Positions 24,416-53,666 of a stretch of DNA of 64,000 bases are shown in pieces (position 1 is the stretch's first letter; the number at the start of each line of letters is the position of its first letter). Location: the NCBI GenBank assembly GCA_029856125.1, contig JAHQWJ010000120.1, forward strand, positions 64,001 to 128,000, written 5' to 3'. Both the position numbers and the translations under genes were made by a program. The notes under the pieces were generated by a model. That model worked only from the letters and a program-made list of their open reading frames with translations. It searched no databases and had not been told where the DNA came from. Source of the stretch: Promethearchaeia archaeon. Lineage in GTDB: Archaea > Asgardarchaeota > Lokiarchaeia > Sigyniarchaeales > SOKP01.

Positions 24416-24429
24416 TTTACTTTAGTAAA
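24416..24429. promoter_or_regulatory. Palindromic operator candidate TTTAC-TTTA-GTAAA
   Basis: Lies in the divergent abfD/MFS intergenic region; motif recurs in 7 promoter regions. Confidence 0.6.
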
Positions 24430-24504
24430 ATCAAACTTCATATTAATTTCGCTTTTTAATTATAAATCCTAACTCTATCTTATAGATCTAAAAAGTTTGA
24501 AGTT

Positions 24505-25944
24505 ATGACACTAAATATTGAGAGAAGAGAATTGCATGGGAAGCGGTTAATTGGATACGCTTCTGGAAATTTTGGTCTTTCATTAGTTAATATATTTACT
24601 GGCACATTTATTTTCCAGTTTTACGTATATACTATCAATCTTAGCTCCATTTTGGTATCTGTTGGTCTAATAATTAATTCAATTTTAATAGCAATTTTTG
24701 CAATTATATCCGGAGTAATTGTAGATAATAAAAAACCTAGTAAAAGGGGAAAGAGAAAAATCTTCCTTATCCTTGGGCTTCCTATTTGGTTTTCAGCTAA
24801 TATTTTTCTTTGGCTCCCTCCTTGGTATTGTCCACCTTCAAATTCGTTTTTCTTACCGACAGCCCTATATTTCTGGTTCATGATAAGTATAAAAGCAGTA
24901 TTTGGAACTTTAATATTCACTACATACCTATCTATGCTTCCAGAACAATCTCAAACATCAGAAAATAGAAAAAAGGTTGCCTCAATAAGGGTAATATTCT
25001 CTATTACTGCTTCTGTATTGGCACTATTGATGCCGTTAACTATCCAAAGCTTATTGGAAGATCCTGAAAATGCTAAGTGGTGGCAAAGCTCGGGAAATAT
25101 TATCGTTACTTTAATGCCTATAATTGGTATCAGTTTTGCGTTATTTGGATCAGTTACTATAATTTTTACTTACCTCTCTGTAGACGAAAGCTTTCATAAT
25201 CAATACGAGTTACAAAATGAAAAAAAAAAAGTAAAAGATGCTTTCAGAGCCATTTTTTATCCTTTAACCGACAGAAATTATAACAAACTGTTATTAGTGC
25301 AATTCTTTGCAAGGACTACTGGAAAAGTGTTAGCTATCTTAATTATACCGTTAATTACTTATGTTCTTTTATTCAAAGATAATGACTTTTATATCTACAT
25401 AATAGTATCTATTACTAGTAAGCTAACATGGTATATTTTCTGGAGACAGTTCTTTAAAAACAAAACTCTTATTACTAAATATGCCGTTTGTCTATTGCTA
25501 GCAGGGATAGGGACCATTCTAGTAATAATCTTTATTATTCCTATAGGAAATTTCTTACTTATAGTAATATTGTTTTTCATTACAGAGGGGACTATTCTCG
25601 GGGCGTTATACGCCTTCCCATTATTTTCCATTCCCTTAGGGGCAAATCTAGTTCATGATGCAGCAAAAAATATTGATAGTGAATCTCTTGATAGAGCCTT
25701 GTCGTCTCTTTCCGGGTCTTATTATGGAGCCCTAAATTTTATTAGTTCCATGGGGCAAACCGTTGGATCACTCATTGTAGGCTTTATATTAATTGGTCCT
25801 AATGAAAAAAATCCAACAATAATAGTATTATTGTATTCTTCAATTGGAATATTATATTTTATCAGTATTATTTTCTTGAAAAAAATTAGAATTTATGAAG
25901 AACAAATTAAAGTTGAAATAGATATGTCTCAGACTATTAACTAA
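24505..25944 (+). CDS. MFS transporter, GPH/MelB-like
   Basis: IGYASGNFG, G.IVD.....RGKRK, SMLPE......R; about 12 TM. Confidence 0.88.
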   Translation: MTLNIERRELHGKRLIGYASGNFGLSLVNIFTGTFIFQFYVYTINLSSILVSVGLIINSILIAIFAIISGVIVDNKKPSKRGKRKIFLILGLPIWFSANIFLWLPPWYCPPSNSFFLPTALYFWFMISIKAVFGTLIFTTYLSMLPEQSQTSENRKKVASIRVIFSITASVLALLMPLTIQSLLEDPENAKWWQSSGNIIVTLMPIIGISFALFGSVTIIFTYLSVDESFHNQYELQNEKKKVKDAFRAIFYPLTDRNYNKLLLVQFFARTTGKVLAILIIPLITYVLLFKDNDFYIYIIVSITSKLTWYIFWRQFFKNKTLITKYAVCLLLAGIGTILVIIFIIPIGNFLLIVILFFITEGTILGALYAFPLFSIPLGANLVHDAAKNIDSESLDRALSSLSGSYYGALNFISSMGQTVGSLIVGFILIGPNEKNPTIIVLLYSSIGILYFISIIFLKKIRIYEEQIKVEIDMSQTIN

Positions 25945-25984
25945 CTATTACTGATTCTTGTAATTATGACTTTCAATTTTCAAC

Positions 25985-26776
25985 TCACTTGCCAATAAAC
26001 TCTGGTTCTTTCTTATCGTTAATAGCAAACACTCCAATTTTAAAATCTTGTGTTTCTGCTGATTTGATCTGCATTTGCCGTTCGTTTTCAAGATGATTTA
26101 TTAGAGATTCGCTTAAAGCATCAAAAAATAATTTTTTTGTGCGTGCGTATGTTAGCGTAGGACCACTCGCAAGTTTAGATGCCATCTCATGAGCTCTACT
26201 TATTAATCTTTCGGGGTCAACAACTTCATTTACAAGCCCTAGTTTAAACATATCCTCTGCTGTATATGTATCTCCAAAAAACGCCATCTGAGTTGCTTGT
26301 TGCCAAGTTAACTGGCGGCTAAGCAGTATAGTTCCTGCAAACCCGGGAATTAACGCAAGCTTGCTAAACGATTGTTTGAATTTTGCTGTATTTGATGCTA
26401 TAACTAAATCACAAGATAGCGCAAGATTCATTCCCGCTCCTACGGCCCATCCATTCACCGCTGCTATAACGGGTTTTGGATATTGGCGCAAGATAAGTGC
26501 GATCTTATATAGATTCTTTAATAAATCATCCATGAATTCACCAGGTTTCCCTACTTCAATACTTTCCTTAAAAGCTTTTATATCACCACCTGCAGAAAAA
26601 GCTTTACCAGAGCCCGTGATCATCAAGCATCTTATGTCTTCTTTATTCCGAAGCTGCTCTAAAACTTCAAGCAATTCTTCAGCCATCATTTGATTTAGAG
26701 GATTGTAATTTTCTGGATCATTAAGAACAATTTTGGCAACTTTGTCAATTATTTCTAATCTTACTTTACTTTCCAT
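25985..26776 (-). CDS. Enoyl-CoA hydratase/isomerase family protein (paralog of 30585..31376)
   Basis: AFSAGGD, KPVIAAVNG.AVGAG; about 85% identical to the second copy by manual count. Confidence 0.92.
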   Translation of the reverse strand: MESKVRLEIIDKVAKIVLNDPENYNPLNQMMAEELLEVLEQLRNKEDIRCLMITGSGKAFSAGGDIKAFKESIEVGKPGEFMDDLLKNLYKIALILRQYPKPVIAAVNGWAVGAGMNLALSCDLVIASNTAKFKQSFSKLALIPGFAGTILLSRQLTWQQATQMAFFGDTYTAEDMFKLGLVNEVVDPERLISRAHEMASKLASGPTLTYARTKKLFFDALSESLINHLENERQMQIKSAETQDFKIGVFAINDKKEPEFIGK

Positions 26777-26788
26777 TTAATTTCACCT

Positions 26789-51716: not shown

Positions 51717-51732
51717 AAGAAATTAAATCTTA

Positions 51733-51752
51733 TTTTTTTTTTACTTTATTTT
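51733..51752 (+). terminator. Putative oligo-T terminator
   Basis: T-rich tract about 17 nt after the binding-protein stop. Confidence 0.45.
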
Positions 51753-51801
51753 TATATTACTTAGCTCAATATGTCGATAAGTTTTATTTTCCTAAAATCA
51801 A

Positions 51802-53613
51802 TTAATTTGTAATGTAATCTTGGATTTGGTTATCCCAAATTTTCCTTTTACTACCAATATTTTCCCACTCGTTCATAATTTCGCTCTTAAGATATTCCGT
51901 AGTCGGACTCATTGGTAAATTATCTAAAAAACCAATATATCTCGGGACATGGTAAAAAGCAAGGTTATGAAATAAGAAGTCGCTCAATTTTTTAGGAGTA
52001 AGGGTAGAACCCTTCAGCTTTACGACATATAAAATCACTTCTGTTTTTGGTTTTAAATCATTTACGAAGGGGATACACGCACTTATATAAACTGAAGGAT
52101 GAGAATTAGCCATTCTTTCAATTTCTCTTAAATAGATTATTTCTCCAGCTCTATATATAATCTCATTCTTTTTGCCTTTAAAATATAGAAAATTGTCGTC
52201 ATCAATATATCCAAAATCCCCTGTATAAACCCAACCGTCATCACTTATCCTTACATCACTAATTTCCGGTAGTTTGTAATATTCAAATGTGACGTTAGTT
52301 CTTGATTTTACAGTTATTTCACCAATTTTATCTGGTCCTGGAGATAATTCATTACCATTCGGATCTACTATTTTCAAATCAAGAGAATCTAATGGTTTTC
52401 CGACTGATCCCATTTTTCCTCCATATGATCCCAATGTATTAATTGTAATTCCCACTCCTTCCATATGGGAATAACACTCATACAATTTTATTCCAAATCG
52501 GTTTTCAAATGATTTCCATAATTCATCGCCAGCAGCAAAACCATACGCCCATTTTAAGGGGTGTTTCCTATCAAACTTGCTAGGATTATTATACAAGAGG
52601 TATAATAAATAACCACCATAGTAAGTAAAAACTGTGGGAGAATGTGTTCTAACATCGTCCCAAAAATTCTTTACATTGAAATTTTGTGCTAAAACAACGG
52701 GAATATTATAAAACAATGAAGGAATAATAACATAAAATTGTGCTGCTCCTTGAAATAAAGGCATTGGACAATAAATTTTTGTATCGTATGACAATCCGAT
52801 GCTTTTTAATTGATAACCTATGTTTATAGAAGTAACCAATACATTTCTATACAACACGCCTTTTGGTTTTCCCGTAGTGCCTTCGGTATACATAATATGT
52901 ATTGGATCTTCTTCAAATATGCTAACTTTAGGATTATCAACATTTGAACTCTTGAGTAATTGAAAATCTAAATAATCTTCATTAAATTCAAAGTCTTTTG
53001 GAGCGTTATGAATATAAATCTTTTTTATTTTTGGTAATTTAAGACGCAATTCATCGAACTGTTTTAGAAAAATGTGATCGATAATGAGAATTGTCGTATC
53101 ACTATCGTCCAAAATATGCTCTAAATATTTTCCTTTCAATGCAGTATTAATTGGGACAAAAACGCACCCGGATTTTACTATACCGAACCAAGAATATAGA
53201 AAATCCGGACAATTACCCATCATCAATGAAATATTTGGGTTTTTAACATTTAGTTTATGAACTAAATCTAGTATCCCCCATGCGATTTGATTCGATTTTT
53301 CATTAATGTCCTTAAAAGTATACTTCTCATTTTCATAATATAATATTACTTGATTACTATTTTCTGTTGCTTTCTTTCTAAGCAACTTTGGAAGAGTTTC
53401 ATTACCACTACCATATTCTTTAATCATTCTAGAATGGACATTATCCCTTCTAATTATTATAGAGTCATTTTTAATCTCTAGCAAAACTTCTTCATCATTT
53501 TTAAATGGAAAGGAACTATCATTAGCAACTTTAGTTGGAACGTATATCCAGGTTGTTTTATATTTACCTTTACCAGAAGGTTTTTCAACAATTTTACTTT
53601 TTCCAAATTCCAT
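51802..53613 (-). CDS. AbrB-like N-terminal domain fused to a CaiC-like AMP-binding fold with degenerate catalytic motifs
   Basis: N-terminal TWIYVPTKVANDSSFPFKNDEEVLLEIKNDSIIIR; YTEGTTGKPKG, YTGD, YHVPRYI; A10 Lys missing (LPMSPTTEYLK). Confidence 0.8.
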   Translation of the reverse strand: MEFGKSKIVEKPSGKGKYKTTWIYVPTKVANDSSFPFKNDEEVLLEIKNDSIIIRRDNVHSRMIKEYGSGNETLPKLLRKKATENSNQVILYYENEKYTFKDINEKSNQIAWGILDLVHKLNVKNPNISLMMGNCPDFLYSWFGIVKSGCVFVPINTALKGKYLEHILDDSDTTILIIDHIFLKQFDELRLKLPKIKKIYIHNAPKDFEFNEDYLDFQLLKSSNVDNPKVSIFEEDPIHIMYTEGTTGKPKGVLYRNVLVTSINIGYQLKSIGLSYDTKIYCPMPLFQGAAQFYVIIPSLFYNIPVVLAQNFNVKNFWDDVRTHSPTVFTYYGGYLLYLLYNNPSKFDRKHPLKWAYGFAAGDELWKSFENRFGIKLYECYSHMEGVGITINTLGSYGGKMGSVGKPLDSLDLKIVDPNGNELSPGPDKIGEITVKSRTNVTFEYYKLPEISDVRISDDGWVYTGDFGYIDDDNFLYFKGKKNEIIYRAGEIIYLREIERMANSHPSVYISACIPFVNDLKPKTEVILYVVKLKGSTLTPKKLSDFLFHNLAFYHVPRYIGFLDNLPMSPTTEYLKSEIMNEWENIGSKRKIWDNQIQDYITN

Positions 53614-53652
53614 AGTTTATCAAATCTATATTTATTCAAAATAGCTTATTAA

Positions 53653-53666
53653 TTTACTTAAGTAAA
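53653..53666. promoter_or_regulatory. Perfect 14-bp palindrome TTTACTTAAGTAAA, operator candidate
   Basis: 40-53 nt upstream of the AbrB-ligase fusion start, abutting a TTAATAA box. Confidence 0.62.

Follow-up and report, generated by a model that had tools for sequence, protein, structure and literature searches.

A recurrent palindrome as the probable operator of AbrB-like/AMP-binding fusion proteins in a lipid and ester gene island of an Asgard archaeon

Seven exact copies of the palindrome TTAC-N4-GTAA occur in a 64,000-nucleotide (nt) stretch of DNA from a Promethearchaeia archaeon (GenBank assembly GCA_029856125.1, contig JAHQWJ010000120.1, positions 64,001 to 128,000), hereafter the window, and all of them stand in promoter regions of a single gene island that encodes importers, esterases and enzymes of acyl-CoA metabolism. 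Here we describe evidence that this element, in its 14-bp form WTTAC-N4-GTAAW, is probably the operator of a locally encoded, self-regulated family of one-component transcription factors, represented by the paralogs f1 and f2, through which the island would be controlled. Asgard archaea, most of which cannot be grown, are the closest prokaryotic relatives of eukaryotes, and to our knowledge almost nothing is known about gene-specific control of transcription in this group.

The source genome (G000) comprises 3.69 Mb in 153 contigs with 32.7% G+C and encodes an archaeal small-subunit ribosomal RNA, Ras-family GTPases, and leucine-rich-repeat (LRR) and HEAT proteins; the DNA of the window, positions 64001-128000 of the contig carrying the island (C126), recurs in marine-sediment metagenomes. 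Intergenic DNA is taken throughout, by a crude mask, as everything outside open reading frames (ORFs) of at least 80 amino acids (aa), which leaves 545 kb genome-wide and 4,577 nt (about 75% A+T) in the window. Expected counts come from Markov models (orders 1, 3 and 5) fitted to the intergenic DNA of the source genome, order 3 being used for the window figure.

Palindromes in the promoter regions of one gene island

A pattern search of the window returned exactly seven TTAC-N4-GTAA matches, with cores starting at 24417, 26956, 32666, 37148, 38799, 49325 and 53654, and the corresponding 14-mers agree letter for letter with those listed in an earlier note that had been made from the sequence of the window alone. 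Dinucleotide shuffles of the window gave a mean of 1.36 matches and a maximum of 5, never reaching seven. As the note had claimed, all seven sites lie outside ORFs of at least 80 aa, and its rough estimate of well under one chance match in intergenic DNA is borne out by an expectation of 0.15 (P ~3e-10). The comparison of motif frequencies that it had proposed gave a divided answer: there is no genome-wide excess of the palindrome in intergenic DNA, where 17 of the 78 matches in the genome fall against 14.5-18 expected, while nine of those 17 are concentrated in one 49-kb stretch, C126:88,416-136,996, which extends beyond the window end. Within C126:86.3-137.3 kb, which holds 3,444 intergenic nt, these nine compare with 0.11 expected (P ~7e-15); the two that are past the window end, at window-equivalent positions 64481 and 72996, lie in paralogous promoters. 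Each promoter-bearing intergenic region of the island, six divergent and three unidirectional, contains one exact site, and none was found in the island's within-operon gaps, convergent gaps or coding DNA (window 22.8-73 kb). Elsewhere in the genome the intergenic matches number seven, below the chance prediction, and those that were checked adjoin unrelated genes (CAAX protease/LRR, prenyltransferase, NAD kinase and an ArsR/MarR-like protein); a site at C126:160220 that abuts an unannotated ORF of 222 aa was taken as chance. The palindrome signal is purely local and not a general promoter feature. One-mismatch versions number 398 in the intergenic DNA of the genome, and the variants at 5636, 10888 and 32896 to which the note had drawn attention carry no weight, the five seen in the window being at chance level (3.3 expected).

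Site 1 (24416..24429, TTTACTTTAGTAAA) lies between a divergent HpaB/AbfD-like gene, whose ATG is 121 nt away, and an MFS transporter gene (75 nt), and site 2 (26955..26968, ATTACATAAGTAAA) between a divergent enoyl-CoA hydratase (ECH) gene (178 nt) and an operon for an aldehyde dehydrogenase and an Fe-alcohol dehydrogenase (Fe-ADH; 61 nt). Site 3 (32665..32678, TTTACTTTAGTAAA) is found 58 nt upstream of a minus-strand operon encoding an acyl-CoA dehydrogenase (ACAD), an ECH and a ferredoxin, and 310 nt upstream of a plus-strand Abhydrolase_3 esterase gene, and site 4 (37147..37160, TTTACTATCGTAAA) 100 nt upstream of a minus-strand operon for an Fe-ADH and CoA-transferase A/B. A divergent carboxylesterase gene (53 nt) and an operon for a FATP-like acyl-CoA synthetase and a GDSL lipase (98 nt) flank site 5 (38798..38811, TTTACTTATGTAAT), and site 6 (49324..49337, TTTACATATGTAAT) separates the divergent operon 1 of an Opp-type ATP-binding cassette (ABC) importer, headed by a gene that we call orfX (92 nt), from the gene for solute-binding protein (SBP) 1 (102 nt). 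Site 7 (53653..53666, TTTACTTAAGTAAA) ends 39 nt before the ATG of the gene for the fusion regulator f1 and abuts a conserved A/T box of the TTAATAAG type. At divergent promoters, the distance from the single site to most of the start codons is 53-121 nt. TATA-like strings are everywhere in the DNA of the window, so that the spacings to such boxes that had earlier been called activator-like or repressor-like are at most tentative. At fusion-gene promoters, a TTAATAAAG or TTATTTAAG box adjoins the site; it lies about 35 nt ahead of the ATG and is kept in over a dozen orthologs.

Comparison of paralogous and orthologous promoters indicates what is retained when the surrounding DNA changes. The two orfX/SBP intergenic regions of the island keep in register both the palindrome and, 21 nt downstream of it, a TTTAWATAG box, their flanks having diverged, with site-to-start distances in the paralogous cassettes of 84-92 and 102-110 nt for orfX and SBP, respectively; at the f1 and f2 promoters, the site stands 39 and 40 nt before the ATG. 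In the congeneric genome G007 the island is syntenic and sites occur at five island promoter regions, those of the fusion gene, SBP/orfX, acyl-CoA synthetase/carboxylesterase and carboxylesterase/Fe-ADH and one upstream of a 694-aa gene of the beta-lactamase family; four of the five match sites of the source genome. Phylogenetic footprinting, suggested in the note as a check, picks out the palindrome as the conserved block in the diverged promoters: those of the fusion gene are 33% identical between the two genomes, with the palindrome and a few flanking bases as the longest conserved block, and those of the synthetase and esterase are 57% identical, with a 20-nt block around site 5 as the longest conserved stretch. 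Site 4 has an identical counterpart at the orthologous promoter of G007 and site 6 is also conserved there, while the fourth region compared, being 80% identical overall, is too similar to single out the site. We regard the palindrome as almost certainly a functional cis-element.

The fusion gene and its protein

The gene downstream of site 7, f1 (51802..53613, minus strand), encodes the candidate cognate regulator, a protein of 603 aa composed of an AbrB-like N-domain of about 60 aa, a linker, and a FATP-like ANL (AMP-binding) domain with substituted catalytic positions. Its paralog f2 (C126:135147-136955) is 62% identical overall and lies 19 kb from f1; these two, both in the island, hold the only copies in the source genome of the N-terminal 68 aa of the fusion. 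The N-domain was found in seven of 60 related genomes, nearly always at the start of a frame of about 600 aa. Upstream of the fusion gene, an exact site is present in G007 (-43), G014 (-53, in a promoter with the same layout as those of f1, f2 and G007), G009 (-35) and, in two copies (-112 and -70), in G057, which represents a different family; the fusion gene of G023 is preceded by two one-mismatch copies, and three further metagenome-assembled genomes of Promethearchaeota have an exact site at -24, -33 and -60.

A scan of metagenomes gave 79 loci, from which the removal of near-duplicate upstream regions left 42 fusion genes and 18 stand-alone small homologs. The exact palindrome lies within 200 nt upstream of 37 of the 42 fusion genes, mostly at -52 to -43, versus none of the 18 small homologs, a result that upholds the earlier nomination of the AbrB fusion as a candidate regulator; the remainder of these loci, 107.5 kb in all, holds 4 sites, which puts the background at 0.007 per 200 nt. 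All five exceptions have a one-mismatch palindrome at the same place. The half-sites TTAC and GTAA are invariant and the 4-nt spacer between them is clade-specific (CTTAAG here; CGGTAG, CGGGAG, CGACCG, CGATCG or CGTACG elsewhere), which is a pattern of protein-DNA recognition and not of an RNA helix. In the CGGTAG-spacer clade (loci L069-L102, for example L074, L079 and L081), a degenerate copy of the TTACTCTATAAA type precedes the exact palindrome by 1-2 nt, and in other clades a second exact copy is located 22, 42 or 87 nt away; these arrangements suggest that more than one dimer may bind and that two dimers may do so cooperatively.

The surroundings of the fusion gene differ by lineage, being the importer island in G000 and G007, a beta-oxidation-type operon in G057, and an alpha/beta-hydrolase gene and a corrinoid cassette in G009, with acyl-CoA or esterase genes adjoining it in distant genomes too. 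Through all these contexts the motif has the fusion gene as its one constant partner, a classical mark of a factor that regulates itself through its operator. Two of the loci have peculiarities of their own. The contig of G057 (G057:C6, DATKTP010000006.1; locus L044) is titled Candidatus Deferrimicrobium sp., a bacterium, and encodes a Ras-family GTPase beside the Asgard-type fusion regulator and two operator copies, and it may be mis-binned. In G038 (C17, about 31.3-33.1 kb) the fusion gene is split into frames of 160 and 434 aa with no palindrome upstream, perhaps because the copy is decaying or the assembly is wrong at this point.

The N-domain, predicted to bind DNA (residues 1-60; 53434..53613, minus strand), has a beta-beta-alpha-beta-beta arrangement and is strongly conserved, with K7, G14, Y18, W22, Y24, D32 and F35-P36-F37 standing out. 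A search of 1.84 billion representative sequences with its profile retrieved the fusions first and then several hundred stand-alone proteins of 52-100 aa with the same signature, two of ten of which have sub-threshold matches to the AbrB family PF04014 (E 0.002-0.004). Aligned by hhalign with the three PF04014 domains of the source genome, a 30-sequence profile placed IYIPskva..FPF..EeV.IeI...LiI.K on the AbrB core in the expected register, at E 0.051; a search of PDB sequences with a profile of ten N-domain homologs gave only a chance match (E 1.1). An AlphaFold2 model built from 30 sequences, with a confidence (pLDDT) of 81, has strands at 7-13, 18-24, 43-48 and 51-56 and a helix at 27-30. 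When it was compared with 48,161 representative chains, only nine reached Z>=2, all of them AbrB, SpoVT, MazE, VapB or Sso7c4 domains: Sso7c4 at 4.3 (root-mean-square deviation 1.9 A, 46 of 48 residues), VapB at 4.2 and 4.0, SpoVT at 3.8 (2.3 A, 47 residues), AbrB-N at 3.6 and MazE at 2.6. An earlier, weaker model retrieved the same AbrB-type family, and Foldseek also placed it on top, with weak E-values of 0.6-5. The models thus support an AbrB fold for the N-domain, as a fold-level match and not as proof of homology.

The C-terminal part (residues 79-600) is an ANL domain, matching PF00501 with 174.4 bits over residues 79-446 (cut-off 29.9), and its best PDB sequence matches by phmmer are 4CL2 (E 8e-40) and FATP2 (3e-37), with FadD13 also among them; it has FATP-type motifs in common with the 623-aa synthetase of the island. 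Homologs of the fusion are named only 'AMP-binding protein' in public databases, with PF00501 as their sole Pfam assignment, and full-text literature searches turned up neither an account of an AbrB-ANL regulator nor one of this motif. The combination of an AbrB-like domain with an ANL pseudo-ligase therefore appears to be a previously undescribed architecture, a one-component regulator with an enzyme-derived sensor, and is the probable cognate regulator of the palindrome.

Predicted mechanism and rival explanations

From the co-occurrence of gene and site, the fusion protein quite probably binds the palindrome. The N-domains of two chains would form a two-fold symmetric DNA-binding module matching the two-fold symmetric site, with one half-site for each, and the ANL domain would bind a product of the island's esterases and importers, which may be a fatty or other carboxylic acid, its acyl-adenylate or its CoA ester, such that ligand binding alters the affinity for DNA. 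At the fusion gene's own promoter, the bound protein would cover the B recognition element and crowd the TATA box. Because the site there abuts a conserved TATA-like box, autorepression relieved by ligand is the most likely mode, although we put the chance that the fusion is such a repressor at its own promoter at about even; at the divergent promoters control could be of either sign. The proposal of the earlier note, that the palindrome is the operator of a dimeric regulator linking the ABC importers to esterase and acyl-CoA catabolism, agrees with a site that is present in every promoter-bearing region of the island, is conserved, and is linked to the fusion gene.

Several points weigh against a fusion-bound operator. 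The N-terminal 80 aa of f1 and f2 have no Pfam match, PF04014 included, even at E<=1, and by sequence the N-domain is not a member of PF04014; the hhalign match is weak, and the structural Z-scores are low, at most 4.3, as is to be expected for one half of a swapped dimer of 50 residues. A crisp 14-bp palindrome is also atypical of the AbrB-type domains that have been solved, many of which recognise DNA with modest specificity or act as higher oligomers. The fusion homologs of G059b, G038 and L042 have no exact site upstream, and the presence of two paralogous regulators for one core motif leaves the division of sites between them unexplained. The functional reading of the ANL domain is drawn from motifs, by which the fusions of G057 and G059 may retain activity, and the choice between repression and activation is guesswork.

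It is doubtful that the fusion is a still-active, bifunctional ligase-regulator of the BirA type, which would make an acyl-adenylate as co-repressor or inducer. The P-loop (A3) and the TGD of A7 are largely kept in the fusion proteins, more so in the deeper-branching members, as is most of A8, and the deeper-branching members, for which such a dual role is possible, have canonical YTSGTTGKPKG and GRxxDxI motifs and Arg at the A10 position; the fusions of G057 and G059 combine intact P-loops with an Arg at A10. Against this, in an alignment of 12 sequences, none of the nine fusion proteins has the catalytic lysine of A10 (E/Y, L or R stands there; Y in the alignment with 4CL2) or the threonine of the A5 motif G-x-T-E (M, V, A, S or L instead), whereas three ordinary ligases from the same window keep both residues. 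Moreover, the same regulon contains a catalytically canonical FATP-like paralog (38910-40781), which would make a second enzyme redundant. We infer from these substitutions that the ANL domain of the fusion binds a ligand and no longer catalyses adenylation.

We consider it unlikely that the palindrome, as a genuine operator, is bound by a different transcription factor and that the fusion is a mere member of the regulon, such as an odd acyl-CoA ligase. This explanation draws on the weak fold matches and the missing Pfam match behind the DNA-binding assignment of the N-domain, and on the presence of three ORFs without a Pfam match, of 326 aa (9283-10263), 147 aa (10318-10761) and 337 aa (53786-54799). 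The last, upstream of f1, gave nothing informative in a protein atlas, and it is not conserved beside f2 or in G014, G009 or G057. As set out above, the fusion gene is the only gene that adjoins the motif across the contexts of G057, G009 and G000/G007, and the site stands in the promoters of 37 of the 42 non-redundant fusion genes themselves. Pfam scans of the non-nested island ORFs found no TrmB, TetR_N or other helix-turn-helix (HTH) family. A TrmB-like protein, the other local candidate of the note, has to be dropped: the source genome has 17 matches to PF01978, none of them in the window or island, and the nearest is sub-threshold (C126:206,966).

That the sites are non-functional, arising by chance in A+T-rich DNA or copied with duplicated promoter segments, is highly improbable. 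The absence of genome-wide intergenic enrichment would fit chance, as would the rarity of the 14-mer, which is less frequent than its reversed control in 61 of 61 related genomes, so that whole-genome counts cannot separate genomes with the regulator from those without it; local Poisson probabilities of 3e-10 to 7e-15 stand against it. As to copying, the earlier suspicion that two of the seven sites are non-independent duplicates holds in part for the sites at 24416 and 32665, which share their right flank (58% identity), while all other pairs are at background level (22-50%), and at least eight of the nine island sites are therefore independent. The site is also kept in diverged orthologous and paralogous promoters and, despite differing spacers, upstream of the metagenomic fusion genes. 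A role in RNA, as a hairpin in a 5' leader or as a terminator, has a negligible probability. The stem of 4-5 bp with a 4-nt loop that can form has a minimum free energy of -0.6 to -1.4 kcal/mol, which shuffled sequences equal (z 0.07 to -0.98); a U-tract after the palindrome is missing, divergent promoters are served, and the stem bases are invariant across clades, without compensatory changes, as the loop varies.

Known systems and the contents of the island

Adenylate-forming or catabolic enzymes that carry a DNA-binding domain and regulate their own pathway include the biotin protein ligase/repressor BirA and PutA, both of them active enzymes, with a winged HTH and a ribbon-helix-helix fold, respectively; the fusion differs from both in its predicted DNA-binding fold and in the missing catalytic lysine of A10. 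SpoVT of Bacillus subtilis (PDB 2w1t) and archaeal AbrB-PhoU proteins resemble the fusion in combining an N-terminal AbrB-type domain with a C-terminal ligand-sensing or regulatory domain. Unlike these, the C-terminal part of the fusion is an ANL fold of 540 aa and not GAF or PhoU, its N-domain scores below PF04014, and its predicted operator is a compact 14-bp palindrome. A bona fide PF04014 domain fused to PhoU repeats is encoded 7 kb from f2 (332 aa; C126:143211-144209, minus strand), and an ORF of 332 aa also lies near the fusion gene in G007 and G014; the AbrB-PhoU protein is probably a regulator of phosphate uptake unrelated to the palindrome.

Closer to the proposed function, BzdR of Azoarcus sp. 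CIB is described (PMC3602430) as a DNA-binding domain joined to a shikimate kinase fold that has lost catalysis, binds the CoA-thioester effector of its pathway, and controls a catabolic cluster. On that account the fusion is like BzdR a one-component regulator with an enzyme-derived sensor domain; BzdR differs in being bacterial, in having an HTH domain and another enzyme fold, and in that its binding and effector were demonstrated experimentally, where those of the fusion are inferred. FadR_Sa of Sulfolobus acidocaldarius is an acyl-CoA-responsive repressor that uses a few palindromic operators to control a cluster of about 30 kb with lipase/esterase and beta-oxidation genes, and that regulates itself (PMC6449355). 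Such an archaeal, local regulon of lipase/esterase and acyl-CoA genes is similar to the island, whereas the regulator is a TetR-family HTH protein and its 16-bp motif of the TTGA..GGTCAA type is unrelated to TTAC-N4-GTAA (PMC6449355). A regulon of the FadR_Sa type was rejected as an explanation here, no island ORF having a TetR_N match and the published motif being different. The HHC-box regulon of Sulfolobales involves the 115-aa HhcR and an 18-bp HHC box (PMC5461723); the host considered here is an Asgard archaeon and not a member of that order.

The island, as defined by Pfam scans and a gene map, extends over about 22.8-73 kb in window coordinates, the last 9 kb lying past the window end, and comprises about 15 transcription units. 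Its genes encode AbfD/HpaB-like and MFS proteins, two ECHs, an ACAD and a ferredoxin-like protein, an aldehyde dehydrogenase, two Fe-ADHs and CoA-transferase A/B, together with acyl-CoA synthetases, FATP-like and other, and two paralogous Opp-type ABC cassettes, each with a small membrane protein (orfX) at its head and its own SBP_bac_5 binding protein opposite. Esterases or lipases number at least seven, and the genes of this kind include an Abhydrolase_3 esterase, three carboxylesterases, a GDSL lipase and two members of the beta-lactamase family. The predicted regulated catabolic block (22843..41594) consists of nine transcription units, each with a site upstream, and by Pfam includes the AbfD/HpaB-like and MFS genes, the two ECHs, Aldedh, the two Fe-ADHs, the ferredoxin-like protein, ACAD, the Abhydrolase_3 esterase, CoA-transferase A/B, a carboxylesterase, the FATP-like synthetase and the GDSL lipase. 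The predicted regulated operon that follows (41629..49231, minus strand), with site 6 in its promoter region, encodes orfX (a membrane protein of 173 aa) and, by Pfam, OppB/C-like permeases, two OppD/F-like ATPases and an esterase-like protein of the beta-lactamase family; the SBP_bac_5 gene for SBP1, also predicted to be regulated (49440..51716, plus strand), has site 6 102 nt upstream. Contigs from two sediment libraries labelled metatranscriptomic cover SBP1 (window 49457-51554) almost exclusively within the 20 kb compared, a weak hint, from libraries flagged 'probably DNA', that is compatible with high SBP expression but no evidence of it. In our reading the palindrome and the island form a local regulon, in which about 40 genes are served by a 14-bp operator.

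Other features of the region concern the importers and the neighboring genes. Both cassettes have long OppD/F-type ATPases, of 486 and 636 aa at 43019-46414 and of 574 and 620 aa at 57787-61419, all on the minus strand, and the ABC_tran domain of the four starts at residues 187, 318, 276 and 291, so that each has a large N-terminal extension, while the ORF heading each Opp operon is conserved, with 173 or 178 aa and no Pfam match. The second cassette (C126:128001-137203) encodes orfX2-Opp2, SBP2 (724 aa), carboxylesterases of 510 and 506 aa, a beta-lactamase-family protein of 366 aa, and f2, with operator sites at the SBP2/orfX2 and f2 promoters. Outside the island, genes for a HEAT-repeat protein, a Ras-family small GTPase and an LRR/HEAT protein stand side by side at window 7992-11949, typical 'eukaryotic signature' genes of Asgard archaea, and the chance-level one-mismatch site at 10888 falls in this region.

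Two unusual importers of the Opp type, many esterases, and genes for activating and oxidising acyl-CoA together suggest that the island serves to take up esterified organic matter in marine sediment and to break it down. On balance we favor the view that an enzyme-derived family of AbrB-like/FATP-type pseudo-ligases, with a fatty-acyl ligand, is the dedicated, autoregulated master switch of such lipid and ester scavenging islands in Promethearchaeota. The analysis provides a concrete, testable pair, the 60-aa domain or the 603-aa protein and the 14-bp site, with a defined regulon of about 40 genes, and the ligand that releases the protein would indicate what the importers carry. If the reading is true, this would be the first protein-operator pair predicted for Asgard archaea; like BzdR, it adds a case in which an enzyme has been taken over as a sensor domain, and it would be an ANL enzyme caught turning into a regulator, because the deeper-branching members keep more canonical motifs.

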